A stretch of 33,238 bases of DNA from a phage. The stretch is taken from NCBI GenBank assembly GCA_018175035.1, contig GCA_018175035.1_4099.2. One strand, written 5' to 3'. The translations under genes were made by a program, and so were the position numbers. The notes beneath the pieces are model-generated. The model had not been told where the DNA came from. It saw nothing but the letters and a program-made list of their open reading frames with translations, and made no database searches. Position 1 is the stretch's first letter, and each line of letters opens with the position of its first letter. Shown piece after piece: positions 957 through 32,444 of the stretch.

Positions 957-966
957 GAGGTTACAT

Positions 967-2723: not shown

Positions 2724-2763
2724 ATTGGATGAGGAACAATAACTAACACAAGGAGTGTGTAAA

Positions 2764-3687: not shown

Positions 3688-3712
3688 AAATCATAAACAC
3701 AAGGAATGTGAA

Positions 3713-4441: not shown

Positions 4442-4451
4442 GGAAACTTCT

Positions 4452-4733: not shown

Positions 4734-4740
4734 ATTTTAA

Positions 4741-4764
4741 GGCCAGCGTTTGCTGGTCTTTTTT
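4741..4764 (+). terminator. Rho-independent terminator
   Basis: Stem GGCCAGC / GCTGGTC (7 bp incl. one G-U), loop GTTT, then TTTTTT. Confidence 0.6.
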
Positions 4765-4777
4765 CGCAGGTACAAAG

Positions 4778-5080: not shown

Positions 5081-5087
5081 AACTAAA

Positions 5088-5666
5088 ATGAATGTATTAG
5101 AATTAAGTACTAAGCTGATTAGTATGCGTAATGAGTGGTACGATTGGTTTTATAATGGTACTGATATGGATTTTTCAAAATATCCATTTATGGAATCAGG
5201 ATGTGATGCAAGATACCGCTGGTTGAGCAAAGATTGTTCTGGTTTACATATTCTAGTTGACGATAGTGGTCAGGGAATTATAAAAGATTTACTTCAAGTT
5301 GAACAACTCGTCCATGATAATTGGTGTGATAACGATCCATACCTTGGAAATATGATTTATGTAAGTGAAGATGATTGCATATTCGTTATCCAGCGTCATG
5401 GTAATTCTATGTTTTATGTAGCAGACAGCAGTACTCCAGAAGGTGCAGCAGCCGATGGTCTTATGCCTAAGATTGATATATTGGAATTTGGATTACCTGA
5501 GCACTTCCAGATTAGTACTTTATACGATATTCCACCACTTGAGTTCTTTGAAGAATTTAAATTGTACTACAATGATCTTCAAAAATTGAGTACTGATCGA
5601 CGCATTGAAATAACTGTTAAGTACATGGACGGAACGAAATTAACTGATACGGGGATAGAATTTTGA
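5088..5666 (+). CDS. Hypothetical protein
   Basis: ATG with AAGAGGA SD; 192 aa. Confidence 0.65.
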   Translation: MNVLELSTKLISMRNEWYDWFYNGTDMDFSKYPFMESGCDARYRWLSKDCSGLHILVDDSGQGIIKDLLQVEQLVHDNWCDNDPYLGNMIYVSEDDCIFVIQRHGNSMFYVADSSTPEGAAADGLMPKIDILEFGLPEHFQISTLYDIPPLEFFEEFKLYYNDLQKLSTDRRIEITVKYMDGTKLTDTGIEF

Positions 5667-6353: not shown

Positions 6354-6617
6354 ATGAATATTAAAGATAGATTACAATTACTATACACTATTGAACAGGC
6401 TGCTTTTGAACTTGTTAATAAAATCTCCGAAGAACTTCCCAAAGGAACTATAGTTCGTGTAATTGAGAGGGATTATGAATCTGGAGAAATTGAAGAACTA
6501 GTACTAACCGTGAATAAAGTAACATACTATGAATCTGAGTTGGCTATCCAATGTATATCGGAAGATGGTAAAATATACTATTATGACACTGGTGTAGATA
6601 TAGAGGTAATAAAATGA
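6354..6617 (+). CDS. Hypothetical small protein
   Basis: ATG 6354 directly after upstream TAA, GGTGGAAA upstream; track start 6309 would overlap upstream gene by 44 nt. Confidence 0.5.
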   Translation: MNIKDRLQLLYTIEQAAFELVNKISEELPKGTIVRVIERDYESGEIEELVLTVNKVTYYESELAIQCISEDGKIYYYDTGVDIEVIK

Positions 6618-7756
6618 CCCTTTTACAAATATATGAAGATTTAATGCACTTATGTAATACAAACGATGCGTTTTTTTATGTGGATCATAAAAGTCCTGCT
6701 GGTGGTACGTATCGTGTATTCAGTTATCGTCTAGCATCATACACTGATTTCATGCAACCAAATGCGTTGGAAACCCGTGGCTCTATGTGGGAAATTGATG
6801 AAGAAGGTGACATGATACGTTGTGCAGCACGTACAATGAAAAAGTTCTTCAATGCTTACGAGAATCCTGCTACAATGTTCCCTGCTAACACCACATGCGA
6901 TGACATTGCGGTAGTGATGCCTAAGTTGGATGGTTCGATTATCAGTACTTATCGTGATAATGATGGTGAGATTCGTTGTAAATCACATACTGCATTGTAT
7001 TCTGACCATGCGATTAACAGTACTCGACTTATTAACGAGAACCAGAATTTGTACCAGTACATCGACGAAGCGGAACGTTTAGGTTACACAGTTAATATGG
7101 AGTATACAAGCCCAGAGTACCGAATTGTATTACCATATCAGGTAGAACAACTGTTTGTACTGAACGTTCGACATCGTGTGAGTGGTGAGTTGCTATGTGG
7201 TAAAGCACTACGTGATAAGTTTCCATGTCTTGCACAGTACAGTACTAATATGACTGGAAAAGATATTCATCACACTTTTCCGGTACGAAATACCTTCCGT
7301 GAAAGCGTGGAGGAAGTTCATAAAATGCTTGATATTGAGGGTTTTGTGTGCATCCTAAATAATGGGACAATGTGTAAAATAAAGACTGACTGGTACAGTT
7401 CATTACATCTTACAAAAGATAGTATTATTATTGATTCTCATTTATATGAAGCAGTATTAAATGGTTCAAGTGATGATTTAAAACAATTGTTCAGTACTGA
7501 TGAATATGCTATGCAAAAGATATTAAGAATGGAACAATTGGTATTTTCGTGCTATAATGCATTACAAGATGAAGTAGAAAGCTTCGTCAAGGAACACAAG
7601 CACTTGGAGCGAAAGGAATTCGCAATGAAGGTTCAGGAGTGTTTAACTAATGAACTGAATCGTCAGGGCTTGGCCTTTGCAATGTATAACAATAAGAAAG
7701 TTGATTACAAAGAGACTCTTATAAAATACATGAAAATTGTACTAAAGGATTTTTAG
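6614..7756 (+). CDS. rnlA: RNA ligase 1 (T4 Rnl1 / gp63 family)
   Basis: N-terminal region closely resembles T4 Rnl1 as I recall it (FFY..D...G.TYR.FSY..ASY.D...P.ALE.RG...E.D....R...R.M.KFFN..ENP.TM); KxDGS nucleotidyl-lysine motif (PKLDGS); ~380 aa. Confidence 0.9.
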   Translation: MTLLQIYEDLMHLCNTNDAFFYVDHKSPAGGTYRVFSYRLASYTDFMQPNALETRGSMWEIDEEGDMIRCAARTMKKFFNAYENPATMFPANTTCDDIAVVMPKLDGSIISTYRDNDGEIRCKSHTALYSDHAINSTRLINENQNLYQYIDEAERLGYTVNMEYTSPEYRIVLPYQVEQLFVLNVRHRVSGELLCGKALRDKFPCLAQYSTNMTGKDIHHTFPVRNTFRESVEEVHKMLDIEGFVCILNNGTMCKIKTDWYSSLHLTKDSIIIDSHLYEAVLNGSSDDLKQLFSTDEYAMQKILRMEQLVFSCYNALQDEVESFVKEHKHLERKEFAMKVQECLTNELNRQGLAFAMYNNKKVDYKETLIKYMKIVLKDF

Positions 7757-8852: not shown

Positions 8853-9785
8853 ATGCCAACTATTACACTAACAGTTGGATTACCTGGGTGTGGTAAAACC
8901 ACATGGGCAGTTCAAGAAATTAAAAATGCCAAATCCAAGACTATCAACATCAACCGTGATGATATTCGTGAATCTATGGCTGGGTCACATGATGCTTACA
9001 AATTCAACGATGCTAATGAGCAGTACGTAACTAATTTACAGTTCAGTGCAGCAAATTCAGCAGCAGAGAATGGTTGGAACATCATCATATCCGATACAAA
9101 CCTTAAACAACATTTCCGTAATCTCTGGAAAGTATGGGCTAAAGATAATGGTTATGATTACAAAGAAAAGAACTTCTATGATGATTTTGTACCTAATGAA
9201 GACCGTGGTGCAGATGTTCATGAATTCTTTAAGATTAAAGAGTTCGTAAAACTTTGTAAGAAATATAACCTCCAGCGTGAGCGTTCAGTACAAGATGATA
9301 TCATTGACACAATGGCAGATACGTACTATTATAGTAAGGCATTACACATTGGTTACTATGGTAATTCACGCGAAGCTGCTATCATCGTTGATATCGATGG
9401 AACTCTTGCTCATAAATGGGGTCGTAATCCTTACGATGAAAGTACTGTTCTTCAGGATACACCTGATGAAGAAGTTATTTTGTCTATTATCGCTGAAGCA
9501 GTTTTTCATAAACGCAAGATTATCGTCATGAGTGGGCGTACTGAAGGGTGTCGTGCTGATACCGAACAGTGGCTTAAGAATTGGGGTGTTCCTTACGATG
9601 CATTGTTTATGCGAGATATCGATGATAAACGTCCTGATGATGTTGTAAAATTCGACCTGTACATGAAAAATGTGGTTGATCATTACGATGTTAAAAAGGT
9701 ATATGATGACCGCGATCAAGTTGTATTCATGTGGCGTAAGCTACTTGGGTTGAAAGTTTTCCAAGTGGCTGAAGGAAATTTCTAA
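8853..9785 (+). CDS. pseT: Polynucleotide 5'-kinase / 3'-phosphatase (T4 PseT/Pnk family)
   Basis: AAGGAG SD; N-terminal P-loop GLPGCGKTT with NINRDD; C-terminal HAD phosphatase motif DIDGTL; C-terminus ...DDRDQVVFMWRKLLGLKVFQVAEGNF resembles T4 Pnk as I recall it. Confidence 0.9.
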   Translation: MPTITLTVGLPGCGKTTWAVQEIKNAKSKTININRDDIRESMAGSHDAYKFNDANEQYVTNLQFSAANSAAENGWNIIISDTNLKQHFRNLWKVWAKDNGYDYKEKNFYDDFVPNEDRGADVHEFFKIKEFVKLCKKYNLQRERSVQDDIIDTMADTYYYSKALHIGYYGNSREAAIIVDIDGTLAHKWGRNPYDESTVLQDTPDEEVILSIIAEAVFHKRKIIVMSGRTEGCRADTEQWLKNWGVPYDALFMRDIDDKRPDDVVKFDLYMKNVVDHYDVKKVYDDRDQVVFMWRKLLGLKVFQVAEGNF

Positions 9786-12954: not shown

Positions 12955-13205
12955 TGTTCAACACTGACTTATCACATCTGCGATATCTTATGTCTTTGGC
13001 TGATGATTTTATAAATGATCTGAAGCCAAAATATATTGGTCAAGAAGTACGATTAATAAACTCCAGAGGGTATGGAAAGTATATTATTACTGATATGTAT
13101 ATTAGTGGTGGTGAATGGCGTTTTAAAATTAATACTTATCTTAAAGATGGTTCTTTTGCTGGAACACAAGTTACTAAACACACTAATATTATATGGTTGG
13201 AGTAA
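12954..13205 (+). CDS. Hypothetical small protein, paralog family B (KYIGQEV)
   Basis: TAATG overlap; motif DLKPKYIGQEVRLIN. Confidence 0.55.
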   Translation: MFNTDLSHLRYLMSLADDFINDLKPKYIGQEVRLINSRGYGKYIITDMYISGGEWRFKINTYLKDGSFAGTQVTKHTNIIWLE

Positions 13206-13207
13206 TA

Positions 13208-13951
13208 ATGAAACACTTCTTAGAAGTAACCGTACCTGATGATAAAGATTTATACATTGTAGGTGATTTGCATGGTAATGGTAAACTATGGGATGCTACA
13301 GTGAAAGAATTTGGTATTACACACAATGATTATGTTTTCAGTGTAGGTGATATTATCGACCGTGGAGAACAAAATTCAAAGCTCCTTTTTGAATTTTTGT
13401 TCGGAGAAAATCGTTACATGATTGCGGGTAATCATGAGATGATGTGCGTTGATTCGGAAACACTTCGAGATTGGTATCATTGTTGGATAAGTAATGGTGG
13501 TGATAAATTCCTTGATGAAGTTGGAGGAACAGGCATTCAATTCTTTCGTCAGTACTTAAAGGATCTCCCTATGATTATCCAAATCAATCACCGAGGATTG
13601 AAGATTGGGTTAGTTCATGCTGGTGTTCCGTTGGAATATACAACATGGGAACGATTTGTTAATGGGACAAAATCACTTAGTGCTGATATAATTGATAAGT
13701 GCTTGTGGGATAGAAAAACATTCGATTATTGTAGAACTAATAATACATATTATGCACCTAAGTTAGATGGAGTGCATTGTGTCTTTAGTGGACATACAGC
13801 AGTTACAGATCCACTCATTTACGGTAATCGCATTTGGATTGATAGTCAGTTCTTGACGGGTGACTTAACTCTCGCTACTCCACAAAGTGGTGGAATGAGA
13901 TACTTACGTAAAGAAAAAGATGAGTACTCATTCAATCGTTTCAAAAGGTAA
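13208..13951 (+). CDS. PPP-family Ser/Thr phosphatase-like metallophosphoesterase (lambda PPase / ApaH-like)
   Basis: Motifs GDLHG, GDIIDRG, GNHE; ATG 13208 with GGAG SD just after upstream stop (track start 13193 overlaps upstream gene). Confidence 0.8.
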   Translation: MKHFLEVTVPDDKDLYIVGDLHGNGKLWDATVKEFGITHNDYVFSVGDIIDRGEQNSKLLFEFLFGENRYMIAGNHEMMCVDSETLRDWYHCWISNGGDKFLDEVGGTGIQFFRQYLKDLPMIIQINHRGLKIGLVHAGVPLEYTTWERFVNGTKSLSADIIDKCLWDRKTFDYCRTNNTYYAPKLDGVHCVFSGHTAVTDPLIYGNRIWIDSQFLTGDLTLATPQSGGMRYLRKEKDEYSFNRFKR

Positions 13952-16083: not shown

Positions 16084-17502
16084 ATGAGCATTTTAGCAAT
16101 TCTTGAAAGCATTAAAAATACTAGCAGTACACTAGGCAAAAAAGCTATTCTTGAACAAAATAAAGATAATGTAACTTTACAAAAAGTACTGAAATATACA
16201 CTAGACCCTTCTATCGTTAGTGGCTATAAGAAGCTCCCTGCCGCTGATGACGTATATCAACATATGACGTTAGATGAAGCAATTGATAAGCTAGAATGCA
16301 TTTACAAGCGTGATGTGACAGGAAATGCGGGGCGTGATTTCATTGCTTCAGTACTGGGTTCAGTATCAGAAGATGATCAAGAAGTTCTCCGTAAAATGCT
16401 TACTAAAAACCTTGATTGTGGTATTCAAGAAAAGAACTGCAATGATGTATTTGGTAAAGGCTTTATTAAAGACGAACCATATATGCGTTGTTCTTTGATT
16501 GACAAAAAGACTGCAAAGAACATCAACTTCAAAGATTATGGTTACGCTATATCAGAAGTGAAAATGGATGGTCAGTACTTGAACCACGTTGTCATTAATG
16601 GTTCATTAACTTCTACATCCCGTAATGGTAAACTATACGACTTCCTGGGTTGTCGTGATGGTGAGATGGCAGGTCTTGCTCACATCATCCAAAGTAAAGA
16701 TGAACGTTTTAGTAGTGGTGTAGTCTTTATGGGTGAAGGTGTAGTACTGGACAATGATGGAGAAACCATTCTCCCACGCACTACTGGCAATGGTATAATT
16801 CAGAAAGCTGGAAAAGATAGTATCAGTCAGAATGAAGCAATGCGTACTGTATTTGTTCTATGGGATGTTGTTCCATATGATGCATTTTGTGAAGGTGTAT
16901 GGGATGTAAAACGTAAAGAACGTCGCGAGATCTTAGTAGATGCAATTAACGAACTCAGTAGTGATTTTGTTCGTATGGTTGGATTCCGTAAAGTTCTAAA
17001 CATCAAAGAAGCATTTGAGTACAATAGTGAACTAATGAGCGTAGGTGAAGAGGGTTCAGTACTGAAATGTGAAGATGGTATCTGGAAATCTCACACTTCT
17101 CCTAAGCAATTGAAAATGAAACTCAAAATGCAACTGGACTTGCGTATTGTTGGTTTCAATGAAGGTGAAGGTAAGCGTAAAGGTAGCCTTGGTTCTTTAC
17201 AACTGGAAAGTGCTTGTGGTACATTGAAAGTTAATGTAGGTACTGGAATTAAAGAGAAAGACGCAGAATGGACGTTTAAAACCATTTGGGAAAGAATGCA
17301 AGAACTCATCGGTCAAGTAGTAACAGTAGAGTGCAATGATATTGTATTCGATAAGCGTACTGGTGAGCCATCACTGTTCTTACCAGTGTTTATTGAATTT
17401 AGATTTGACAAAAACACTTGTGATGATTATACTCGTATCTTAGAAATTCGTGAGAGTGCAGTTGAAGTGTTCTCAAACAGTATTATTGACGCATTAGGTT
17501 AA
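16084..17502 (+). CDS. ATP-dependent DNA ligase (T4 gp30-like)
   Basis: N-terminus ...STLGKKAILEQNKDN resembles the T4 ligase N-terminus as I recall it; adenylation motif I KxDG (VKMDGQ); ~470 aa; AAAGGA SD. Confidence 0.9.
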   Translation: MSILAILESIKNTSSTLGKKAILEQNKDNVTLQKVLKYTLDPSIVSGYKKLPAADDVYQHMTLDEAIDKLECIYKRDVTGNAGRDFIASVLGSVSEDDQEVLRKMLTKNLDCGIQEKNCNDVFGKGFIKDEPYMRCSLIDKKTAKNINFKDYGYAISEVKMDGQYLNHVVINGSLTSTSRNGKLYDFLGCRDGEMAGLAHIIQSKDERFSSGVVFMGEGVVLDNDGETILPRTTGNGIIQKAGKDSISQNEAMRTVFVLWDVVPYDAFCEGVWDVKRKERREILVDAINELSSDFVRMVGFRKVLNIKEAFEYNSELMSVGEEGSVLKCEDGIWKSHTSPKQLKMKLKMQLDLRIVGFNEGEGKRKGSLGSLQLESACGTLKVNVGTGIKEKDAEWTFKTIWERMQELIGQVVTVECNDIVFDKRTGEPSLFLPVFIEFRFDKNTCDDYTRILEIRESAVEVFSNSIIDALG

Positions 17503-17521
17503 CCATTTATTGGAGGTAATT

Positions 17522-18313
17522 ATGAAATTTGTTGTAACATCTGATGTACACGGTGGGACTGATTACCTCCATAGTGGTGATTACAGTGATACAGTACTGA
17601 TTATTGCTGGGGACTTCGATGAAGTTAAACGCAGTCGTTACCGTACTGGTATCGAATCACTATGTAAGCAGTTTAAGAATGTAGTACTGGTTCCTGGCAA
17701 TCATGAATATTATGGTTCCAATATCCACAAAACGCATAAAGTACTGTCCGATATACAAGATGAGATTCCAAATTTCATCTTTTTGCAAAACAAATTTGTA
17801 TGGCTGGATGGAGTACTGCTTGTTGGTAGTACTCTGTGGACAGACTTCGATAAAGGTAATTCTTTGACGAAGTTTGATGCTCGTCAGAAGATGAACGATT
17901 ACAAACATATCCGTCATGGAACAACATCAGAGCCTTGGCGTAAGAAACTGACACCAGATGATACTGAGTTTATGCATCACAAAGATAAACAATTTATCAA
18001 AAATTCTATTGACACAGTTCGCTTTATGCATGATAATGATTTCAAGGTCATCGTGGTTACCCATCACGCACCAAGTTATCAAAGTATTTCACCAAAATAT
18101 AAAAATGATTCACTGAATGGTTGTTACTGTTCCGATATGGATCAGTACATTGAAGATTTGGGTGCTGATGTTTGGATTCATGGTCATGTTCATAGTAGCT
18201 TTGACTACCACATTGGTAAGACACGTATCATTTGTAATCCACGAGGCTATGAATCATACAGTGGAGCTTGTGAGAATTTTGATTACAATCCTAAATTTGT
18301 ATTTGAAATTTAA
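17522..18313 (+). CDS. Calcineurin-like metallophosphoesterase
   Basis: Motifs SDVHGG, AGDFDE, PGNHEYY, GHVH; ATG 17522 after GGAGGT (track start 17510 is TTG). Confidence 0.75.
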   Translation: MKFVVTSDVHGGTDYLHSGDYSDTVLIIAGDFDEVKRSRYRTGIESLCKQFKNVVLVPGNHEYYGSNIHKTHKVLSDIQDEIPNFIFLQNKFVWLDGVLLVGSTLWTDFDKGNSLTKFDARQKMNDYKHIRHGTTSEPWRKKLTPDDTEFMHHKDKQFIKNSIDTVRFMHDNDFKVIVVTHHAPSYQSISPKYKNDSLNGCYCSDMDQYIEDLGADVWIHGHVHSSFDYHIGKTRIICNPRGYESYSGACENFDYNPKFVFEI

Positions 18314-21338: not shown

Positions 21339-21834
21339 TACTAATATCTGGTTAGATAACATAATCAAGACATTAGAATTAATTAAACTTACATTACAAA
21401 AAACTACAGATATTGAAATTAATATTAAAAAAGAAATATTAAACTATTATCATAGAAACAACTATAGCACGTTTATCTCTAAATTAATTTATGGATTATA
21501 TGATATTGAAGATATTTGCATCGGTTACAGTACTGGTATTTGCTTCACTGTTAATGGTTTAAAAAATGATTTAAATTTCAGACTTTCCGATGAAGAGCAA
21601 GATTTTCGTAGATTTTGTGATAATATTATGGATACAGATAAAATTACATTTGTTATTGAATTAAATCAAACGTGGTCTACATATGCAGATAAACCATTTG
21701 AAATTAATGAAACAGATGTGTTAAACTATATTCGAGTTATGAAAATTCATGATTTGTGTAAAAACGCATTGTTAAGTATTGGAGCTTATAATGAAACATA
21801 CGACTTGGTTGAAGATAGCAGAAGTAGTTGCTGA
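21310..21834 (+). CDS. Hypothetical protein (very AT-rich gene)
   Basis: ATG ORF overlapping both neighbours (29 nt upstream, 44 nt downstream). Confidence 0.45.
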   Translation: MKYTHLSIDDTNIWLDNIIKTLELIKLTLQKTTDIEINIKKEILNYYHRNNYSTFISKLIYGLYDIEDICIGYSTGICFTVNGLKNDLNFRLSDEEQDFRRFCDNIMDTDKITFVIELNQTWSTYADKPFEINETDVLNYIRVMKIHDLCKNALLSIGAYNETYDLVEDSRSSC

Positions 21835-22270
21835 GGAAAGTAAATGTATTTCACAAAAAGTTGGTTGTGTTATTGTTAAAAATAACCGAGTATTGAGTAC
21901 TGGATACAATGGTACTCCATCAAAACAACCAAATTGCTGTGATGTGAATCAACACTTAGTCAATGATGGGCGTTTTCAAGACTGGGTTAGTGATGAAGCA
22001 AAGCATGAACATCATGAGTGGAGTAATATTCATGAAATCCATGCTGAAATGAACGCTTTACTCTATAGTTCTCCTACTGAACGTCAAGGTGCTACTCTTT
22101 ACACAACACTACAACCATGTTATACTTGTTCTAAGTTGATCGCAGGTAGTGGGATTTCACGTGTAATTTATCACAAAAGTTATCCACGAACACCACCTGA
22201 AGCGATTAAAGTACTGGAAGATGCTGGGATTATTGTTAACTGCATTTATGACAAGGGTATGAATCAATGA
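21791..22270 (+). CDS. cd: Deoxycytidylate (dCMP) deaminase
   Basis: Zinc-deaminase motifs HAEMNAL and PCYTCSKLI; N-terminus ...ESKC.S.KVGCVIVKNNRVLSTGYNG resembles T4 Cd as I recall it; ATG after GGAG SD (track start 21779 is TTG). Confidence 0.85.
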   Translation: MKHTTWLKIAEVVAEESKCISQKVGCVIVKNNRVLSTGYNGTPSKQPNCCDVNQHLVNDGRFQDWVSDEAKHEHHEWSNIHEIHAEMNALLYSSPTERQGATLYTTLQPCYTCSKLIAGSGISRVIYHKSYPRTPPEAIKVLEDAGIIVNCIYDKGMNQ

Positions 22271-22521: not shown

Positions 22522-22550
22522 AAAAAAGGAGCCACAAGGCTCCTTTTTTG
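22520..22550. terminator. Bidirectional Rho-independent terminator between convergent genes
   Basis: A-run, stem AGGAGCC / GGCTCCT, loop ACAA, T-run; symmetric so functional on either strand. Confidence 0.65.
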
Positions 22551-22928
22551 TTAACCAGGGATGTTACAATAATACAAATCCCAAGGGTGATATTTCATTT
22601 CTCCAGTACTCAATTTAATTTTATGAAACTGGAATGATTCGGCAAATGCACTATCATCAATCTTAATACAAAAAGTATTTTTTGCTAAAGTTGGTGCAAT
22701 CTCTAGTGCAGTTTTAGATGCATCTAATCTGATTTTATCTTTATCAAAACTTGTTATAGTTACAAAACGATAAACATTAAAATCAGTGTCGATAAGATCG
22801 TAAACACAACTAGAACGTTGATTAAAGATGTTCAAGTTATATTTCAATTCACCGTTTATATTAGCGGCGGTTACACAAAAGCCGCCGATATTGAATGGTA
22901 ATTTACCTTGTGCTGCTATAGCTTTCAT
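22551..22928 (-). CDS. Hypothetical protein (125 aa); the only convincing minus-strand gene
   Basis: ATG preceded on the minus strand by AGAGGA at 8 nt; stop abuts the bidirectional terminator; competing + strand ORFs here lack SD. Confidence 0.55.
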   Translation of the reverse strand: MKAIAAQGKLPFNIGGFCVTAANINGELKYNLNIFNQRSSCVYDLIDTDFNVYRFVTITSFDKDKIRLDASKTALEIAPTLAKNTFCIKIDDSAFAESFQFHKIKLSTGEMKYHPWDLYYCNIPG

Positions 22929-23080
22929 ATTTTATTTCCTCTTATTAATAAACAACTACTTTTACAGATTGTTGTACCTTTTATATTTACACCGTCAACT
23001 AAATATCCACCTAAAGTGAATGGAAATTGGTCTTGTCCTGCGATTGGTTTTCCCATTAAGGGCACTCCTTATAAAAAAGC

Positions 23081-23110
23081 TTTACATTTGGTATGTGTTT
23101 GTGATAGAAT
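23081..23110 (+). promoter_or_regulatory. Candidate sigma70 promoter TTTACA-N18-TGaTAGAAT
   Basis: -35 TTTACA 23081-23086; extended -10 TGaTAGAAT 23102-23110. Confidence 0.4.
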
Positions 23111-23175
23111 CTTCACAGTGATTGTACTAAGGGGATTATCAGATGAGGGAAATTTGAGTTAAGTACAGAAAAAGT

Positions 23176-23204
23176 TTGACTTAAGTGTTTAAGTACTATA
23201 TTAT
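23176..23204 (+). promoter_or_regulatory. Candidate sigma70 promoter TTGACT-N17-TATTAT
   Basis: -35 TTGACT 23176-23181; -10 TATTAT 23199-23204; about 35 nt upstream of the 23238 gene. Confidence 0.45.
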
Positions 23205-23237
23205 TTATATCTTCCTAACCAAAATTAAGGATTTGTT

Positions 23238-23846
23238 ATGAAAAGACTATGGCTTGAGGTAGTACAAGCAGTAATGCTTCTGATGTTGATAAATTTTCCA
23301 GCCAGTGCTGGTATTGAAAGTAAAAATGTGATAAAGTACAATCCTGAAACACGTAATGTATATTTCATCTCAGATATTACGGATGGGTCACTAAAGCGTA
23401 TGATGGAGTTGTATGATAAAGAACACTATGATACCATTACCATCACATCGCCAGGTGGTGATTTTGATGCTGGGATTAAAATGGCAAACTTCGTTAGAGA
23501 CAATGGTATAAATTTAATTGTTTCTAGGTATTGCAACTCAGCATGTACTGTGGTATTCTTCAGTGTAGCTTTTGAAAAGCGATACATGATAAATCGCTCA
23601 GTACTGGGTCTTCATAACATTTCGATTAAAAGTAATGTTACTGATGGTGATAATTCATTTGTGTCTGTAAGACAGCTATCAACTTTTACCGAAGAAATGG
23701 CAACAAAGGTAGGTTTCCTTTTTTCACTATATGCAGCAAATGGAATCCCACCAGAAGTTCTATTTAGAGTTAGTCGTTCTCGTGGTGAAGATGTTGTAAT
23801 ATTAACAAAACCAGAACTGGTTTTTTACGGTTCAGTCAAACAATAA
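23238..23846 (+). CDS. Secreted (signal-peptide) ClpP/S49-like serine peptidase-fold protein
   Basis: N-terminal hydrophobic signal (LLMLINFPASAG); ClpP-like SPGGDFDAG, then CNSAC and GLHN in ClpP Ser/His positions; AAGGA SD. Confidence 0.55.
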   Translation: MKRLWLEVVQAVMLLMLINFPASAGIESKNVIKYNPETRNVYFISDITDGSLKRMMELYDKEHYDTITITSPGGDFDAGIKMANFVRDNGINLIVSRYCNSACTVVFFSVAFEKRYMINRSVLGLHNISIKSNVTDGDNSFVSVRQLSTFTEEMATKVGFLFSLYAANGIPPEVLFRVSRSRGEDVVILTKPELVFYGSVKQ

Positions 23847-23916
23847 AAATAATTAAAATAACAGGATGATTATGATGTACTTCCTTTGTTATTAATTATA
23901 TTGAGATTATATAACT

Positions 23917-24177
23917 ATGACAAACATCCAAAACTTGACATCTATTATTTTTTATGCTACTGTAGTAATGTATGCTACAGTTATTTTTCTAACAGTTTTC
24001 ATTTACAAAGATTATCGTAATGGCTTTATTGATCCAACTACAATGAAGTTCAATTCAAAATTCGAAGCAATAATTTATTATGTACTATCAACTTCATACT
24101 TGGTGTGCCTAATGTTGTTAGGAGCACTAATTTATATCTTATACACAACATTATTTGCAATTGGAGCTATTTTATGA
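23917..24177 (+). CDS. Small integral membrane protein (two TM helices)
   Basis: ATG ORF; hydrophobic segments. Confidence 0.5.
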   Translation: MTNIQNLTSIIFYATVVMYATVIFLTVFIYKDYRNGFIDPTTMKFNSKFEAIIYYVLSTSYLVCLMLLGALIYILYTTLFAIGAIL

Positions 24178-24767
24178 CCTGTATTATTGCACACACTGAC
24201 GGAGTAAGTTCTTTTATTGCTGGGGATAAGTTAGGAAGCAATGGATTTACAAAAACTGTTCAAACTGAGCCAAAGGTATTCGAGAAAGAATTTATCAAGT
24301 TACATGATGATGGACTAACTAGAACTAAAGAAGTAATGGCATTGGGTTATACTACATCATTTCGTATGGGTCAGTTGTTAAATTATAACCTTAATTTACC
24401 TGAACAAGATGCTAGTCAAACATTTTCACAATATTTGGTTCTTAAAGTTATTCCAATCATTCGTCAAATGTTTAAAGAAGAATGGGGTGCACGAGATGCA
24501 TCACAAGATGTAGGTGGTGGACAATTTATCATTCTCCACAATCATACAATCTATGAAGTTCAAGAAGACTTTTCAGTACTACAACCTAAAACAAGAATTA
24601 CCGCAGTAGGTAGTGGGACATATCATGCAATTGCAGCAATGCAAGCATATATTGAAGTTGAGAACGAATCTAAAAAACCACTACACGAACGTATCAAATC
24701 AATTTTTAAAATTGTTAGTGATAATGTAACAAGCGTAAGCGAAGAGTTTGATGTTTTAAAATATTAA
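24174..24767 (+). CDS. HslV/proteasome beta-subunit-like N-terminal-nucleophile hydrolase
   Basis: ATG 24174 (ATGA overlap, GGAG SD); N-terminus MTCIIAHTDG...IAGD parallels HslV MTTIVSV...IAGD with Thr at position 2; C-terminal AVGSGTYHAIAA parallels HslV AIGSGG.YA.AAA. Confidence 0.7.
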   Translation: MTCIIAHTDGVSSFIAGDKLGSNGFTKTVQTEPKVFEKEFIKLHDDGLTRTKEVMALGYTTSFRMGQLLNYNLNLPEQDASQTFSQYLVLKVIPIIRQMFKEEWGARDASQDVGGGQFIILHNHTIYEVQEDFSVLQPKTRITAVGSGTYHAIAAMQAYIEVENESKKPLHERIKSIFKIVSDNVTSVSEEFDVLKY

Positions 24768-24794
24768 AAGTACTAATATTATAAGAGAGAATAG

Positions 24795-24989
24795 ATGATG
24801 GCATACACAATTTATGAATGGGTTTTGAGTTTTTTTATAGTTTTTTCTATTGTTGTAATTTATAACAATGCTAAATGCTTATATAGAGACTTGAAATCCA
24901 ATGGTTATCACAAAGATAATAATTTTATGTATGCCTATCATATTGGAATCATTCTGTTATTATCAATATATTTAATTGTTTTTTTATAA
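24795..24989 (+). CDS. Small membrane protein
   Basis: ATG ORF; two hydrophobic segments. Confidence 0.4.
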   Translation: MMAYTIYEWVLSFFIVFSIVVIYNNAKCLYRDLKSNGYHKDNNFMYAYHIGIILLLSIYLIVFL

Positions 24990-24998
24990 GGATTGAAT

Positions 24999-25751
24999 AT
25001 GATATCAGAAAAATTTATAAGCAATGAAGGTAAAAAGCGATTACTGATTATATCAGGTGCAGGACTTTCTGTTGAAAGTGGTATGGAACCTTTTCGATTT
25101 GATGATGGTTTGTGGGATACATTTAAAATTAATGATGTATGTAACATTGCTAGTTTAACTACGAAATATCACGTTGTTCATTCCTTCTATAATACATTAC
25201 GTGTAAAATTGGGACAATGCGAACCCAATGCAATGCATTATTTTATAAAATCGTTAGAAGATCAATATGGTGATTGCTTCCTTCATATGACTTCTAACAT
25301 GGACGATCTTTATACTCGTATTGGTGGTCATGAGCTTAAACTTCATGGAAACTTGTGCGAAGTTATTGAAAATTATAGTATCAATTCCGATGATTATAAT
25401 GTTATTAACTGCGGATACGAACCATACATACCAAAACATGATGTTTTTGCTAAACCAAATGTAGTAATGATTGGAGAATATCATCGTTATGTTGATGGTA
25501 TTCGCTTACCAATTTACGAAGAACGAAATAATGTGTTGAAATCTCTTAATGAAAATGATACAGTTATTGTAATTGGTAGTAGCGATACAGTACTGGTATG
25601 GTCGAGATTAGCAGCAGCATTACCATGTTATAGTGTTAATGTTAACATTCGTAAAAATGATAATGATTTTTTGTTTAATGAAAAAGTTATCAAGCCAGCA
25701 ACCAAAGCAATACCGCATCTAGAGACTATAATTAAGGAACGTATGAAATGA
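24999..25751 (+). CDS. Sir2 (sirtuin) family protein, NAD-dependent deacylase / ADP-ribosyltransferase fold
   Basis: Sir2 motifs GAGLSVESGMEPFR (GAGxS...SGxPxFR), TSNMDDL (T/QNxDxL), LHGN, VVMIGE, VIVIGSS; no obvious 4-Cys zinc ribbon; ATG after AAGGA (track start 24993 is TTG). Confidence 0.75.
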   Translation: MISEKFISNEGKKRLLIISGAGLSVESGMEPFRFDDGLWDTFKINDVCNIASLTTKYHVVHSFYNTLRVKLGQCEPNAMHYFIKSLEDQYGDCFLHMTSNMDDLYTRIGGHELKLHGNLCEVIENYSINSDDYNVINCGYEPYIPKHDVFAKPNVVMIGEYHRYVDGIRLPIYEERNNVLKSLNENDTVIVIGSSDTVLVWSRLAAALPCYSVNVNIRKNDNDFLFNEKVIKPATKAIPHLETIIKERMK

Positions 25752-26299
25752 GTGTTAAAGAAGTTCCCTTTGGTGAATATGGCACACGTGCAAATTTTGT
25801 ATTTTGTTATTTCTTTGCAAGAAAATGCAACCCTTACAAAAACTATGAGTTGAATGATATACCAGAAGTAAATTTAGTATTACTGCAATTACGATGGGAT
25901 GGTCTTCTTGGTGGATGTGGTGGAACCGTAGAAAGTACTGATATCTCACTAGAAGATGCGTTGCGTCGTGAAGTTCAAGAAGAAATGGATTACAATATTT
26001 TTGTTTCCCATCTTCGACCACTCAAAACTTTTGAAATTTACCCAGGTGCAAACAGTCACAGTTTTAGCTATGAAGTAACCTATGACGAGTTGAAACACAT
26101 TAGAGATGGATACACTAATGCTAAACATGCAAGTGCAGAAGTTGCTGGTGTAAATTTATGTCATATTTCTCGTTATTCTAAGGGACAAAATCGAGAAGCG
26201 GGATATAATAATCTTATGACACAGAACTTCATCGGTACAGCAAAACAAGAATTGGAGTATCTGGTTCAAAAAGAAAACTTACTAATTAGTTATCTATAG
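25748..26299 (+). CDS. Putative Nudix-fold hydrolase (divergent Nudix box)
   Basis: ATGA overlap with Sir2 gene; GGCGGTVE...LRREVQEEMDY resembles Nudix box Gx5Ex7REUxEExGU with a 4-residue insertion and D in place of the last G. Confidence 0.45.
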   Translation: MSVKEVPFGEYGTRANFVFCYFFARKCNPYKNYELNDIPEVNLVLLQLRWDGLLGGCGGTVESTDISLEDALRREVQEEMDYNIFVSHLRPLKTFEIYPGANSHSFSYEVTYDELKHIRDGYTNAKHASAEVAGVNLCHISRYSKGQNREAGYNNLMTQNFIGTAKQELEYLVQKENLLISYL

Positions 26300-26308
26300 G
26301 AGTTTAAC

Positions 26309-26629
26309 ATGTCTTACTCAATGTTTTTGGATGATATTCGTGATGCAAATCTATATTATCCAAACCAAGATATGGTGGTATGTCGTGACTTTAAAAGTGC
26401 ATGTGAATATGTTATTGAAAATGGAATTCCAGCATTTGTATCATTCGACCATGACTTGGGTGATGTGAGCGAAGACGAAAAGACTGGATATTCTTTTGCT
26501 AAGTTTCTTATTGATTATATGTTTGATAATAATATTAAAGAACCGTTTGAGTACTTTGTTCACAGTAGTAATCCTGTTGGTAAAATTAATATTGAAACAT
26601 ACTTAAACAATGGATTTAACTCATTATGA
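26309..26629 (+). CDS. Receiver-like domain protein resembling the cyclic-phosphate-processing receiver (CPR) family (tentative)
   Basis: Pattern FLDDIR...SFDHDLG...TGY...HSSNPVG matches my recollection of this family; AGGAG SD 8 nt upstream. Confidence 0.45.
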   Translation: MSYSMFLDDIRDANLYYPNQDMVVCRDFKSACEYVIENGIPAFVSFDHDLGDVSEDEKTGYSFAKFLIDYMFDNNIKEPFEYFVHSSNPVGKINIETYLNNGFNSL

Positions 26630-26928
26630 TTCAAACACACATCAAAAGTCTTATTTGTACTGTTCTGTTAGGTGCAGGAGTTCTTTGGTTCGGACAGTAT
26701 CACGAGAACACTAAGCGTACCAACATTCACTACAATACCGCAGAAGTTGTTAGTTTAGGACAATGTAGCGAGTCCAAATGTTCATTTATGTATAAAACCC
26801 AAAGTGGTGAAGTACGTAATGGACTATCAAGAGAACCAGTTTCAATTGGTCAACTTGTTTACCAGGAGTGCTGGGAAGAAAAGGTTCGAGGTTCACGTTG
26901 CTATGTTGAATACGAACCAAATATGTAA
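26626..26928 (+). CDS. Membrane-anchored / exported Cys-containing small protein
   Basis: ATGA overlap; N-terminal hydrophobic helix; four Cys. Confidence 0.5.
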   Translation: MIQTHIKSLICTVLLGAGVLWFGQYHENTKRTNIHYNTAEVVSLGQCSESKCSFMYKTQSGEVRNGLSREPVSIGQLVYQECWEEKVRGSRCYVEYEPNM

Positions 26929-26952
26929 TAATCCGAGTCAATAACATTAGTC

Positions 26953-26985
26953 GAGTACAAGGATGTACTCATAACTCAAGGATGT
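26953..26985 (+). promoter_or_regulatory. Hairpin plus 9-bp direct repeat CAAGGATGT overlapping the PhoH ribosome-binding site
   Basis: Stem GAGTACA / TGTACTC with loop AGGA (26953-26970); CAAGGATGT at 26958-26966 and 26977-26985, second copy carries the SD. Confidence 0.3.
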
Positions 26986-26988
26986 TTT

Positions 26989-28428
26989 ATGAAAAAATAT
27001 ACAATTGACACAAACGTACTACTATCTGACCCTAATGCATCTATTGCTTTTGATGGTGCTGCAATCATTCTACCATTTACAGTACTGGAAGAATTGGATT
27101 CAATTAAGAGTCGTAATGTAGATGTTTCACGCGATGCTCGTGTTGCTATTCGTAACATTGAAGCAATTATTGCAGATGCATCACATGATGAGATTAGTAG
27201 TACTGGTGTTAATATTGCTGATGTTCATACCAATATGAATCCTGATAGCAAATTGTTTGTTATTACAAACGAAGAAGCTGAAGCACTAATTCGTACTAAA
27301 GGTTCAGAAGAGAAAGTTCAAACCCTTCTCAAAAGCACAGTACCTGATGATAAAATCATTCTGGTAGCTTTAGCAACAGAATCAGTACTGGTAACTCGTG
27401 ATATCAACATGCGTATCAAAGCACTAAGTTATGGTGTCGAGGTACAAGATTATCGCCATGATATTGTTATTGGTGATAGTGATTTGATTCACATTGGTCA
27501 ACACCATTTGGAAATTAATTTTTGGGAAGTATATAGCAACTTATCCAATACTAATATTCAATCCGAACAAGTTGGTCGTCGTTTGTATCATTACATTTCT
27601 AAAAGCTTGATTGAACATTTGCTTCCACAAAATCTATGCATCGGTGATTATCTATATGATGATGCAGACGTATTATTTGTGTACGAAGGTCAATCAGCAA
27701 TTGAGGAAGATGATGGAACACTAACACCAGAAGATATTTTGGTATTCCAAGATATTGGACAATCAGTAGCTTTACGTGCTAAAGTATGGGATATTAAAGC
27801 AAAGAATATCCAACAAGCACTCGCCATCAACAGTATTCTCGATCCTGATGTACATCTAACAGTACTGCTAGGTTCTGCTGGTACTGGTAAAACACTAATT
27901 ACGATTGCTACTGCATTAGAATTAGTACTGGAAAAACGTAAATACGACCGAATCATCTTCTCTAAAACTCAAGACTCACAGTTTGAAGATATTGGTTTCT
28001 TGCCAGGTTCAGAAGCAGAAAAAGTGATTCCATTCTGTGGAGCCGCAATTGACGCGTTAGAGTTTCTTCATAAAGATGATGCTAACCCACAAGGTAGTAT
28101 TGAAGAGATTATGAAACGTAATGTTATTCAATTTAAAGCACTAAACTTTGTACGTGGACGTTCATTCACCAACACTATTCTAGTAGTTGATGAATTCCAA
28201 AACATTACACCTGCACAAGCCAAAACAATCTTGACACGAGCAGGATTAAACTGTAAAGTAGTAATTATGGGTAACTTGAGTCAGATTGACAGTAAGTTTA
28301 TTAGTCCTGTTAACAGTGGTTTGACATATGTAACTGAGAAGTTTAAAGATTGGGCAGGTTGTCGTGTCATCGAACTAGAAGGTGTTGTTCGTTCACCACT
28401 TGCAGAATTTGCTGAAGAAAATATGTAA
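26989..28428 (+). CDS. phoH: PIN-domain PhoH-like ATPase (PhoH2/YlaK-type)
   Basis: N-terminal PIN-like region (YTIDTNVLLSDP...LEELD); Walker A GSAGTGKT, Walker B VVDEFQN; 479 aa. Confidence 0.85.
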   Translation: MKKYTIDTNVLLSDPNASIAFDGAAIILPFTVLEELDSIKSRNVDVSRDARVAIRNIEAIIADASHDEISSTGVNIADVHTNMNPDSKLFVITNEEAEALIRTKGSEEKVQTLLKSTVPDDKIILVALATESVLVTRDINMRIKALSYGVEVQDYRHDIVIGDSDLIHIGQHHLEINFWEVYSNLSNTNIQSEQVGRRLYHYISKSLIEHLLPQNLCIGDYLYDDADVLFVYEGQSAIEEDDGTLTPEDILVFQDIGQSVALRAKVWDIKAKNIQQALAINSILDPDVHLTVLLGSAGTGKTLITIATALELVLEKRKYDRIIFSKTQDSQFEDIGFLPGSEAEKVIPFCGAAIDALEFLHKDDANPQGSIEEIMKRNVIQFKALNFVRGRSFTNTILVVDEFQNITPAQAKTILTRAGLNCKVVIMGNLSQIDSKFISPVNSGLTYVTEKFKDWAGCRVIELEGVVRSPLAEFAEENM

Positions 28429-28496: not shown

Positions 28497-28685
28497 ATGG
28501 CTAAACAACCTAAGAAAAAAGAACCAGTAGCAAAAGTTAAGAAAGAGAAAGTTATTCAATCTAAAGAACAACGTATGTACGAACAACGTAAGAGTGAAAC
28601 CCTATCCGGTCTTCAAGCTCTACGCAAACAAGGTGTACTAACTCGTGCACAGTACCGTGAACTAGTAGCTCAGAAAGGTTTTTGA
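28497..28685 (+). CDS. Small basic protein with SHOCT-like C-terminus (tentative)
   Basis: AGGAGA SD; Lys-rich N-terminus; C-terminus LSGLQALRKQGVLTRAQYRELVAQ. Confidence 0.5.
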   Translation: MAKQPKKKEPVAKVKKEKVIQSKEQRMYEQRKSETLSGLQALRKQGVLTRAQYRELVAQKGF

Positions 28686-28788: not shown

Positions 28789-28816
28789 GTCCCTGTCTTT
28801 TGGCAGGGATTTTTTA
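28789..28816 (+). terminator. Rho-independent terminator
   Basis: Stem TCCCTG / CAGGGA, 8-nt loop, then TTTTTT. Confidence 0.6.
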
Positions 28817-31464: not shown

Positions 31465-32079
31465 ATGACAACATCTGAAAAGTACTGGTGGATTTTGGGT
31501 CATCCTAAATTCATAAACAAAGATATGGTTCCAGCTAGGATTGATATAGAACCTCATGATGTGTGTCCAATGACAAATCGAATTGAAGATTTCAAAGCAT
31601 TGAATACAAAGACTCAATTTTGGGTAGAATTTCTTTCACCAATGTATATTGAGCAAGACGACGAATGGGTACAAGCACATGATTATCAATTGGATTGTGG
31701 TGGTGATACGTATGAAGAGGCCATTGATGAATTATACAAAAATGTGCTAAGAACATATGGTGATTACACCCAACAAGAAGCGGACGATGAATTTAATAAG
31801 ATCCATGTAGCTATTTCGACATCATCAATTTATAATCCCACTAAAACAGTTTGGGAGGAACGACACAGTTGGTGTTCATGTGTAATCGATGAAGAAACCA
31901 AAGAAAAAATCATCGATGACATAAAAAATTTAAAAAATACAATCCAAGCCTTGCGTGCATTCATAAAGTCTTGTACAATAGAAGAACAGCAAGAGGCAAA
32001 GATACATTTGGAGAGTGAAGAATGTAAACTTTGGGTTCTAGAAAAATCACTTGAAAAGGGTATAGACTTAGACTTATGA
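31465..32079 (+). CDS. Hypothetical protein (acidic, 204 aa)
   Basis: ATG with GGGGA SD. Confidence 0.6.
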   Translation: MTTSEKYWWILGHPKFINKDMVPARIDIEPHDVCPMTNRIEDFKALNTKTQFWVEFLSPMYIEQDDEWVQAHDYQLDCGGDTYEEAIDELYKNVLRTYGDYTQQEADDEFNKIHVAISTSSIYNPTKTVWEERHSWCSCVIDEETKEKIIDDIKNLKNTIQALRAFIKSCTIEEQQEAKIHLESEECKLWVLEKSLEKGIDLDL

Positions 32080-32444
32080 ATAGTAAATTGGAGAAACTTG
32101 TTGAAGAATTACGCCGGATGCCACCTATTGAGCAAGTAGGGAACTACAAGCGGTATCGTGTGATTGCTCGTGCACTGGATAAAAAAGGTCGAGTACTGGC
32201 AACTCGCACAAATTCTTATACACAGACTCACCCAGTACAGAAGGGTTTCGCCATTCGTGCTGGGCGACCGCAAGGTGAGTTTCTTCATGCTGAAATTTCA
32301 TGTTTACTGGCTGCTCGTGCTGATGTTCATACTTTACTGATTGCACGGATAAGTAAAGATGGAATTCCTGTTCCGGCTAAACCATGTGAAATTTGCTCAT
32401 TAGCAATAAAAGAATATGGGGTGAAAGAGATTATCCACACATGA
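32076..32444 (+). CDS. Small zinc-dependent deaminase-fold protein (CDA / dCMP-deaminase / TadA-like), second deaminase in the window
   Basis: HAEISCL and PCEICSLAI about 30 residues apart; N-terminal YRVIARALDKKGRVLATRTN like the deaminase substrate-loop region; ATGA overlap. Confidence 0.65.
   Translation: MNSKLEKLVEELRRMPPIEQVGNYKRYRVIARALDKKGRVLATRTNSYTQTHPVQKGFAIRAGRPQGEFLHAEISCLLAARADVHTLLIARISKDGIPVPAKPCEICSLAIKEYGVKEIIHT

Follow-up and report, generated by a model that had tools for sequence, protein, structure and literature searches.

The described gene neighbourhood that comes closest to the one analysed here is that of Iyer et al. (2022, Viruses 14:1977; PMC9503650), who in section 3.7.3 of their paper reported, from in silico work, a jumbo-phage neighbourhood combining a sirtuin with 2H, Nudix, cREC and PIN components. 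As that section has it, these genes would carry out an RNA repair dependent on nicotinamide adenine dinucleotide (NAD+), in which 2'-phosphates are removed from RNA in the manner of KptA while the other enzymes resolve cyclic phosphates or clear ADP-ribose cyclic phosphate, rather than a manipulation of host NAD+. The cREC domain had been defined in the jumbo-phage survey of Iyer, Burroughs, Anantharaman and Aravind (Iyer et al. 2021; PMC7824862), where it was first proposed to process cyclic ADP-ribose (cADPR) or cyclic nucleotides with a Nudix enzyme finishing the degradation, and the authors who defined it call the family experimentally uncharacterised in the section of the 2022 paper concerned with it (PMC9503650). 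Here we examine a run of nine genes, g1 to g9, all on the plus strand at positions 23238-28428 of a stretch of phage DNA of 33,238 nucleotides (GenBank assembly GCA_018175035.1, contig GCA_018175035.1_4099.2; the whole stretch is called the window below). An earlier reading made from the letters of this DNA (hereafter the sequence-only reading) had taken the run for a single cassette of a kind that it did not recognise from T4. Our comparisons indicate that the run is a composite of four lineage-variable accessory genes (g1-g4) and a five-gene array (g5-g9) conserved in Rak2-like phages, and that this array matches the neighbourhood for sirtuin-centred, NAD+-using processing or repair of RNA ends that Iyer et al. 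(2022) predicted in section 3.7.3. The module is already known, its genome being annotated and its neighbourhood published in silico, and the proteolytic half is unlinked to the rest.

The block region is 98.7-99.1% identical in DNA to CRJP21, UB, PBECO4 and phAPEC6, which are Escherichia coli jumbo phages of the Rak2-like genus Asteriusvirus, and 95.6% identical to genes 473-480 of 121Q, also an Asteriusvirus. Judged by these identities the window is a piece of a PBECO4/121Q-type jumbo coliphage, and near-identical genomes are already deposited and annotated. Profile searches supported the Sir2, HslV and Nudix assignments of the sequence-only reading, and every gene and fold that it had called in the run stands (Table 1), from the signal-peptide ClpP/S49-like peptidase (g1), the two small membrane proteins (g2 and g4) and the HslV-like N-terminal-nucleophile hydrolase (g3) to the Sir2-family protein (g5), the Nudix-like hydrolase (g6), the receiver-like protein (g7), the exported cysteine protein (g8) and the PIN-PhoH protein (g9). 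None of the block proteins reaches an NCBIfam equivalog cut-off, and scans of the whole window with Rfam models and for tRNA genes returned no RNA family and no tRNA. The tight coupling by ATGA overlaps that had been described for the run holds at three of the eight junctions (g2/g3, g5/g6 and g7/g8) and fails at the others, which are gaps of 9-70 nucleotides.

Table 1. Features of the nine-gene run and its flanks, in window coordinates unless another record is named.
Feature	Position	Strand	Basis or remark
Bidirectional intrinsic terminator, AAAAAAGGAGCC-TTGT-GGCTCCTTTTTT	22522..22549	.	12-bp stem, T-run on both strands; between upstream plus-strand genes and convergent minus-strand gene
Convergent virion structural protein (Ig-like), outside the block	22551..22928	-	phrog_33171, E=3e-88
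Small 46-codon open reading frame	22925..23065	-	annotated in 121Q as gene 472
Distal promoter-like site, TTTACA-18-TAGAAT	23081..23110	+	10/12 match; not conserved
Proximal sigma70-like promoter candidate, TTGACT-17-TATTAT	23176..23204	+	phylogenetic footprint
g1, ClpP-fold serine peptidase with hydrophobic N-terminus, lineage-variable	23238..23846	+	AlphaFold2/Foldseek, invariant residues
g2, 86 aa, two hydrophobic segments, Asteriusvirus only	23917..24177	+	no Pfam or PHROG family
g3, proteasome/HslV-type N-terminal-nucleophile (Thr1) peptidase, lineage-variable	24174..24767	+	PHROG, family profile
g4, 64 aa, two hydrophobic segments, Asteriusvirus only	24795..24989	+	weak match to phrog_18969
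g5, CobB-derived sirtuin of a phage clade without the zinc cysteines	24999..25751	+	Pfam SIR2, CobB structures, alignment
g6, NUDT16/X29-like Nudix hydrolase	25748..26299	+	Pfam; ATGA overlap with g5 (translational coupling)
g7, cREC (cyclic-phosphate-processing receiver-like) domain protein	26309..26629	+	Pfam PF20274, AlphaFold2
g8, 100 aa, hydrophobic N-terminus, four invariant cysteines, Rak2-like-restricted	26626..26928	+	ATGA overlap with g7
g9, PIN-PhoH (PhoH2-type) predicted RNA helicase-nuclease	26989..28428	+	Pfam PIN_4 and PhoH
g10, 62-aa lysine-rich protein	28497..28685	+	conserved 3' of PIN-PhoH in RaK2, BF and Munch, 38-48% identity
Terminator-like hairpin with T-run	28789..28810	+	after g10; terminator also annotated at the corresponding position of UE-S1
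2H/Acb1 homologue BF_0110	L003 3940-4386
2H/Acb1 homologue CBB_118	L004 3911-4357
2H/Acb1 homologue Munch_141	L005 3839-4285

When the array is set against configuration 1 of Iyer et al. (2022), as section 3.7.3 presents it with the sirtuin AQW88637.1 of Serratia phage BF as prototype, four of the five components are found here and are collinear: an orthologous sirtuin (g5 is 44% identical to AQW88637.1), a NUDT16-like Nudix hydrolase, cREC and PIN-PhoH. Their order and orientation agree with those of the prototype, and the phage group is the same. The window has no counterpart of the fifth, the 2H/Acb1 gene, which the phages BF, CBB and Munch possess. The locus further departs from that configuration in that Nudix and cREC are separate genes, in that no NMNAT-NAMPT pair lies upstream, and in that g8 is not among the components listed there. 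The module is not new: the neighbourhood had been published by Iyer et al. (2022; PMC9503650), in the section cited, as one proposed for NAD+-dependent RNA repair.

Comparison of the proteins with those of RaK2, Serratia phage BF, Pectobacterium phage CBB, Salmonella phage Munch and Xanthomonas phage XaC1 separated the two halves of the run. The order Sir2-Nudix-cREC-g8-PIN/PhoH is collinear in five of six lineages (121Q, RaK2, BF, CBB and Munch), XaC1 having only cREC and PhoH with no detectable Sir2, Nudix or g8, and the five genes stand together in 8/8 and 15/16 Rak2-like IMG/VR loci in two samples. The array is kept while neighbouring genes are swapped between Rak2-like genera. Outside Asteriusvirus, a g1 homologue is found only in RaK2 (37% identity, same position) among the phages compared, a g3 homologue only in Munch (67% identity, between NAMPT and Acb1), and g2 and g4 have no homologue beyond the genus. 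At Rak2-like Sir2 loci, ClpP-like genes occur in 3/16 and HslV-like genes in 4/16, and at 76 non-Rak2 IMG/VR loci with an HslV-like gene, PhoH is nearby once and Sir2, Nudix or cREC never. Because g1-g4 vary between lineages and HslV-like genes almost never adjoin the others, the run is not one functional cassette, and the inclusion of the peptidases in it has to be abandoned. The sequence-only reading had itself said that genes scattered in related phages without conserved linkage would speak against its cassette; scattering is what the 5' half displays, whereas the five genes of the array proved linked. Within the array, Nudix and cREC form one polypeptide in Serratia phage BF, the CBB gene having the same single form of about 900 nucleotides, and this fusion together with the ATGA overlaps of g5/g6 and g7/g8 argues for functional coupling.

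In the case of g5, the assignment to the sirtuins is secure and the resemblance to CobB incomplete. Over residues 22-200 the protein scores 73.1 bits with Pfam SIR2 (PF02146; cut-off 24, E=3.7e-20), and it matches solved CobB structures with E=3e-22. It carries the motifs GAGLSVESG, TSNMDDL and LHGN (His116), and the residues G20, G22, S27, G28, T98, N100, L104, H116 and G117 are invariant between it and CobB in the alignment. Eight phage sirtuins (from Rak2-like phages, rV5, T5-like phages and KVP40) aligned with E. coli CobB keep GxGxxxxSG, TxNxxxL and HG, and a VCNI motif is common to the phage proteins. At the positions of the four zinc cysteines of CobB (RCSQ..., KCHCC), no cysteine is aligned in g5 or in the seven other phage sirtuins. 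Thus g5 is like E. coli CobB and the class III sirtuins in its nearest sequence relatives, its NAD-binding motifs and its catalytic histidine, and unlike CobB in the loss of all four zinc ligands, in the clade-specific VCNI and in its scores against the NCBIfam CobB models (NF001755 and NF040867), which are 93 and 85 bits and fall below cut-offs of 318 and 320. In the alignment these phage sirtuins constitute a distinct clade, and relatives of g5 are found in about 975 deposited phage genomes. In canonical sirtuins the zinc module shapes the cleft for the acyl peptide, and its loss in the phage clade fits a changed substrate.

The Nudix hydrolase g6 belongs to the Nudt16-like family (PF22327; 68.6 bits against 27, E=8e-19), reaches the NUDIX threshold as well (30.3 against 21.1 bits), contains the Nudix-box core REVQEE and matches NUDT16/X29 in the PDB with E=3e-12 over 142 residues. 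The neighbouring g7 matches cREC_REC (PF20274) with 80.5 bits against 27 (E=1.5e-22). Its AlphaFold2 model has a predicted local distance difference test score (pLDDT) of 95, and the best Foldseek matches are the receiver domains of NtrX, DesR, ArcA and CheB, with probability of about 1.0 and template-modelling (TM) scores of 0.55-0.63; a sequence search of solved structures returned no relative. Residues D8, D9, R11, D47, H48, D49, S86 and N88 are invariant in 34 sequences, and in the model D8/D9, D47/D49 and S86/N88 come after strands 1, 3 and 4, respectively. A fifth strand with a lysine is a feature of CheY-type receivers; the g7 model has four strands only, and neither the fifth strand nor its lysine was seen in it. 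The domain is found in at least 527 IMG/VR contigs. The g8 family is a narrow one: a library of 1.84 billion proteins contains just 20 representatives of it, and it is present in 15/16 Rak2-like IMG/VR loci.

The last enzyme of the array, g9, combines PIN_4 (72 bits, E=7e-20) with PhoH (150 bits, E=7e-44), and in six orthologues the PIN residues D7, E34/E35, D120/D121 and D138, the Walker A motif GxAGTGKT and the Walker B residues DE401-402 are invariant. The two-domain architecture and the intact PIN acidic residues and Walker motifs liken it to mycobacterial PhoH2, the PIN-PhoH RNA helicase and RNase of Andrews and Arcus, from which it differs in scoring 152 bits against the PhoH2 equivalog cut-off of 680, in that no PhoAT-like antitoxin was identified, and in being a phage protein found in virions. 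Its phAPEC6 orthologue gp341c was detected in virions by 8 unique peptides covering 31% of the protein (PMC7247149), and PhoH is also listed in the RaK2 virion structural proteome according to the paper on CBB (PMC5259590). Virion-associated PIN-PhoH could be delivered with the DNA, or could be a contamination by an abundant protein. The small protein g10, which follows, is possibly the last gene of the unit and a further member of the conserved array, as its conservation 3' of PIN-PhoH suggests.

Genes for RNA ends are also encoded near the array. The same strand of the window encodes, at distances of 5-17 kb upstream of the block, a T4-type Rnl1 (6614-7756), a Pnkp with kinase and HAD phosphatase domains (8853-9785), and three further enzymes (13193-13951, 17510-18313 and 16084-17502), of which two are calcineurin-like phosphoesterases and one is an ATP-dependent DNA ligase. 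These upstream genes amount to a T4-style toolkit for RNA end-healing and sealing near the sirtuin-cREC array. In rV5, Rnl1, cREC and Sir2 adjoin on one strand, with Pnkp and a phosphoesterase divergent beside them, and a same-strand Rnl1/cREC/Sir2 cluster of this kind, in rV5-type and other phage contigs of about 90-155 kb, accounts for 8/64 non-Rak2 Sir2 loci in IMG/VR. Within 10 kb of Sir2 in these 64 loci we counted Rnl1 10 times, cREC 8 times, NAMPT 8 times (directly upstream of Sir2 in two) and PhoH 33 times, the last mostly in one lineage (T5-like), all counts having been made with small home-made hidden Markov models built on few sequences and not corrected for phylogeny. In T5-like phages PhoH lies about 3.5 kb upstream of the sirtuin on the opposite strand, and in another group about 8.5 kb downstream, an arrangement that may be shared ancestry (L199-L261). 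NMNAT-NAMPT-Sir2 or NAMPT-Sir2 is contiguous in two non-Rak2 loci. Of 72 non-Rak2 IMG/VR loci with cREC, 20 have an RNA ligase or Pnkp within 10 kb of it, 4-6 have NAMPT or NMNAT, and one each has Sir2 and PhoH, and in three of four metagenome loci cREC is at most 3 kb from an RNA ligase. The neighbour counts reproduce the RNA-ligase association and show a second recurrent one, that of the sirtuin with NAD+ salvage.

In the model that we favour, the sirtuin would use NAD+ to remove a blocking phosphate from a damaged RNA end or junction, as Tpt1/KptA does, and cREC would then open the cyclic phosphate on the product of the sirtuin step or on RNA 2',3'-cyclic ends. The Nudix hydrolase would split the ADP-ribose pyrophosphate, and PIN-PhoH2, carried also by the virion, would unwind or remodel the RNA and trim it. 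Rnl1 and Pnkp of the T4 type, encoded 15-17 kb upstream, would heal and seal the ends, and in most relatives NAD+ salvage would replace the NAD+ consumed. Alignments show the active-site residues intact in all enzymes of the block, and this, with the fusion and the overlapping genes, speaks for the model. As a whole, the composite picture with RNA-end processing favoured for the array is one that we hold with evenly balanced confidence on the comparisons made, and the exact chemistry with less. The more specific proposal, in which the zinc-less phage sirtuin would be an NAD+-dependent RNA phosphotransferase analogous to Tpt1/KptA and, together with cREC, Nudix, the four-cysteine protein and virion-delivered PIN-PhoH, would let jumbo, rV5-like and T5-like phages survive immunity that cleaves RNA or tRNA, is tentative and in our judgement somewhat doubtful.

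Several observations weigh against the RNA-repair reading and have to be considered together. Our literature search found no biochemical or genetic data on any protein of the array (phage sirtuins, cREC or phage PhoH2), and papers on NARP3 and on RyR domains proved to have no relation to it. The sirtuin g5 keeps the GE of the CobB FGE loop and other CobB-like elements, so that it may be a protein deacylase. The nearest solved relatives of g6, NUDT16 and X29, decap U8 snoRNA, and this nearness would fit RNA decay rather than clearance of ADP-ribose; an RNA cap is a possible substrate of g6. The T4 pathway of Pnkp and Rnl1 leaves no 2'-phosphate, and hence a Tpt1-like step is not obviously needed. 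Tpt1 and KptA, known from fungal and plant tRNA splicing and from bacteria, are of the ART fold, whereas g5 has a sirtuin fold and a predicted activity only, and their 2'-phosphate substrate is not expected from the phage's own Pnkp and Rnl1, given what is established about RNA repair in T4. To these points are added the manner in which the neighbour counts were obtained, the rarity of Sir2 and PhoH around cREC outside the Rak2-like phages, and the collinearity of the flanking g10, g11, g13 and dCMP deaminase genes across Rak2-like phages, by which the synteny of the array could reflect common descent alone.

The observation that points most directly elsewhere is the company that the array keeps in sister genera. 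Upstream of the sirtuin, RaK2, BF, CBB and Munch encode a bifunctional NMNAT/ADP-ribose pyrophosphatase and a NAMPT, which form the NARP2 gene pair, and BF, CBB and Munch encode there also a 148-aa protein matching Pfam Acb1 (anti-CBASS) with E=3.6e-15, whose gene adjoins the sirtuin in Munch and is separated from it by one small gene in BF and CBB. NARP2 and Acb1 genes lie immediately upstream of the sirtuin in 15/16 Rak2-like IMG/VR loci. Contiguity of the array with these genes makes a role in virus-host conflict plausible, so that the host-conflict view of the sequence-only reading, with its emphasis on NAD and RNA, survives for the linked five genes without extending to the peptidases. 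Such neighbours point to counter-defence rather than to repair: cREC and Nudix would degrade immune signals that are derived from NAD+ or are cyclic nucleotides (cADPR isomers, ADP-ribose derivatives, cyclic-phosphate nucleotides), as in the original proposal of Iyer et al. (2021), the sirtuin and PIN-PhoH would have other anti-immunity roles, and the locus would be an anti-defence island. The Nudix-cREC fusion suits this explanation, and the Acb1 homologue CBB_118, detected in virions with 60% coverage (PMC5259590), suggests that an Acb1-like enzyme is packaged and injected, and could, like PIN-PhoH, act at injection. We consider counter-defence rather unlikely nonetheless, for it leaves the role of the sirtuin unexplained, cREC outside Rak2-like phages is accompanied most often by RNA ligases or Pnkp and more rarely by NAD+ salvage genes, the literature search yielded no known anti-Thoeris enzyme of Nudix type, and in the genus to which the window belongs the array was kept although Acb1 and NAMPT/NMNAT were lost at the locus. 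No homologue of NMNAT, NAMPT or Acb1 was found in the window by tblastn, and the best 60 database matches of NAMPT contain no Asteriusvirus record, other Rak2-like genera listed there being 50-56% identical; Asteriusvirus is thus without NAD+ salvage and Acb1 at this locus while retaining the five genes, although a distant copy of the salvage genes may lie in another part of the genome. The position that NARP2 and Acb1 occupy in the sister genera corresponds to the stretch that holds g1-g4 here, RaK2 having both a g1 homologue and NMNAT-NAMPT. Just upstream of the start of the window, 121Q gene 418, annotated as cytidyltransferase (L181 8504-9037), has only a sub-threshold cytidylyltransferase-like match (E=0.006). 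It may encode an NMNAT-like enzyme that stands alone, and in that case it would be relevant to whether NAD+ synthesis is truly lacking in the genus.

The individual enzymes, taken apart from their neighbours, would also be compatible with takeover of the host, in which the sirtuin would deacylate or ADP-ribosylate host or phage proteins, the Nudix hydrolase would remove 5' caps (NAD or triphosphate) from host RNA, injected PIN-PhoH would degrade host RNA and the peptidases would remove host proteins. The relationship of g5 to CobB, with its catalytic histidine and the GE of the FGE loop kept, the decapping relatives of g6 and the intact active sites of a virion-associated PIN-PhoH all agree with it, and the conserved sigma70-like promoter described below suggests expression by host RNA polymerase. 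Takeover would leave cREC, its fusion with Nudix and the recurrent Rnl1-cREC-Sir2 clusters unexplained, the loss of the zinc module argues for a different sirtuin substrate, and the conservation of the array does not extend to the peptidases; we regard takeover as unlikely.

Finally, the five genes may be independent accessory genes that form no functional unit and are held in place by the general collinearity of Rak2-like genomes. That the genes on both sides are collinear across genera would be expected under this explanation, as would the finding that Sir2, cREC and PhoH are mostly apart outside the clade and that XaC1 has two of the five without the others. It is nevertheless improbable, given that Nudix and cREC are fused, that stop and start codons overlap between paired genes, that the array is retained while neighbours are swapped, and that both the Rnl1-cREC-Sir2 arrangement and the NAMPT-Sir2 adjacency recur in unrelated phages. 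The alternative offered by the sequence-only reading, a phage-borne defence or superinfection exclusion against competing phages such as an abortive-infection module with a sirtuin NADase, is very improbable and was rejected as having no supporting feature: Sir2 NADases do occur in many bacterial defence systems, as noted in PMC9503650, and the envelope is a possible site of action for the small membrane proteins and the exported peptidase, but no block protein gave a full-length match to a PADLOC defence model (only short partial ones, of the g9 P-loop to Nhi, AbiO and mad8 and of a 30-residue Nudix stretch to PDC-S07), g5 matched no PADLOC family at E<=0.01, defence Sir2 families such as ThsA, DSR and SIR2-HerA included, the sirtuin is of the CobB type (PF02146) with no sensor domain, and the array of the relatives adjoins genes that make NAD+, whereas such a module would deplete it.

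Regarding the accessory half of the run, both peptidases required family-level comparison, since searches of the PDB with g1 and g3 as single sequences gave noise only and family profiles and a structure model were needed. For g1 the Pfam CLP_protease match is below the cut-off (16.6 against 20.2 bits, E=0.007), as is the NCBIfam ClpP score (23.6 against 228 bits). The AlphaFold2 model has a moderate mean pLDDT of 69 with a core above 90, and Foldseek matched it to ClpP structures with E=1.8e-6, probability 1.0 and a TM score of about 0.6, with 463 matches at E<=1e-3. SPGG, Ser101 and His126 are invariant in the family alignment, and the 25 residues between serine and histidine equal the spacing in ClpP (Ser97/His122). 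Unlike cytoplasmic ClpP, g1 has a hydrophobic N-terminal segment, which terminates in an invariant FPASA and is probably a signal peptide or membrane anchor. The N-terminal third (residues 1-65, 23238-23430) diverges far faster than the rest, the alignment being variable at residues 25-65, and megablast alignments to UE-S1, ph0011 and others begin only at query position 359 or 762.

The start codon of g3 is the ATG of MTCIIAH, not a GTG upstream. The protein belongs to PHROG 1040 (HslV family, E=4e-24), had no Pfam proteasome match, and scores 19.9 bits against the NCBIfam HslV cut-off of 137, while its family profile matches solved HslV structures with E=8e-8. In the alignment of 36 sequences Met1-Thr2-Cys3, Asp18, Lys34 and G146-S-G148 are invariant, which reproduces the catalytic spacing of HslV and proteasome beta subunits (Thr1, Asp17, Lys33, GSG). 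The block encodes neither an HslU nor a ClpX partner, and the window proteins scanned did not include one either. The phage HslV-like family, with its invariant MTC N-terminus and a TSFRMGQ motif, occurs in 384 IMG/VR contigs; none of the homologues retrieved has a precomputed Pfam domain and no HslU-like partner was evident near the copies examined, which suggests a widespread family of orphan threonine proteases. A general link of HslV-like genes with PhoH or NAD genes, prompted by the order PhoH-x-HslV in two of three metagenome loci, was rejected on the IMG/VR loci counted above. In two unrelated phage contigs (L015, from the ENA, 87.5 kb, 1-5549; L017 3356-5555) a stand-alone PhoH is followed, after one intervening gene, by an HslV-like gene, and the locus in L015 adjoins PRPP-synthetase-like, NAPRTase-family and YAcAr/SLOG genes, a set that resembles NARP1.

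The nine-gene run is probably a transcription unit driven by host RNA polymerase, to judge from the signals at its borders. Promoter-like sites are not enriched in the AT-rich window (45 found against 36 +/- 5 in shuffles), and of the two sigma70 promoters proposed upstream of g1 one withstood comparison. Five Asteriusvirus lineages whose flanks have diverged share at the proximal site an invariant -35 TTGAC and an almost invariant -10 TAYTAT, a footprint that makes it a conserved promoter candidate, whereas the distal site is not kept in phAPEC6, UE-S1 or vB_Ec-M-J and is probably not functional. A search for an early-promoter family like TTGAC-N18-TAYTAT gave 7 matches where 3.9 were expected, no significant excess. 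The hairpin after g10 probably closes the unit at its 3' end, and the bidirectional terminator upstream of the block was confirmed as a perfect one.

Between that terminator and the block, the convergent gene, taken to be the only one, is real, but a second small minus-strand reading frame is also annotated in 121Q; it shares 4 nucleotides with the start of the virion Ig-like gene, resembles the N-terminus of that gene (48% identity over 25 aa, E=5e-7) and looks like a truncated tandem duplicate of it. The phAPEC6 orthologue of the Ig-like gene, gp347, was detected in virions with 8 peptides and 75% coverage (PMC7247149). This position, at 22551-23237 of the window and compared with 1-1600 of L178 (UE-S1) and 1595-1880 of L179 (vB_Ec-M-J), is an indel hot spot within Asteriusvirus: vB_Ec-M-J has no copy of the virion gene and UE-S1 has a far larger gene in its place on the minus strand, the TTGAC...TAYTAT beside g1 being kept in both. 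Two genes of the orthologous region of 121Q (469 and 490) are annotated as dCMP deaminase and correspond to 21779-22270 and 32076-32444 of the window, the second copy by annotation only.

If the RNA-repair model is true, the sirtuin fold would gain a catalytic activity new to it, that of an RNA phosphotransferase, and cREC would receive its first assigned function. Confirmation would also explain why NAD+ salvage genes of counter-defence adjoin the array in most relatives. Because the E. coli jumbo phages that bear the array (PBECO4, 121Q and phAPEC6) are culturable, both the repair prediction and its counter-defence rival are directly testable.

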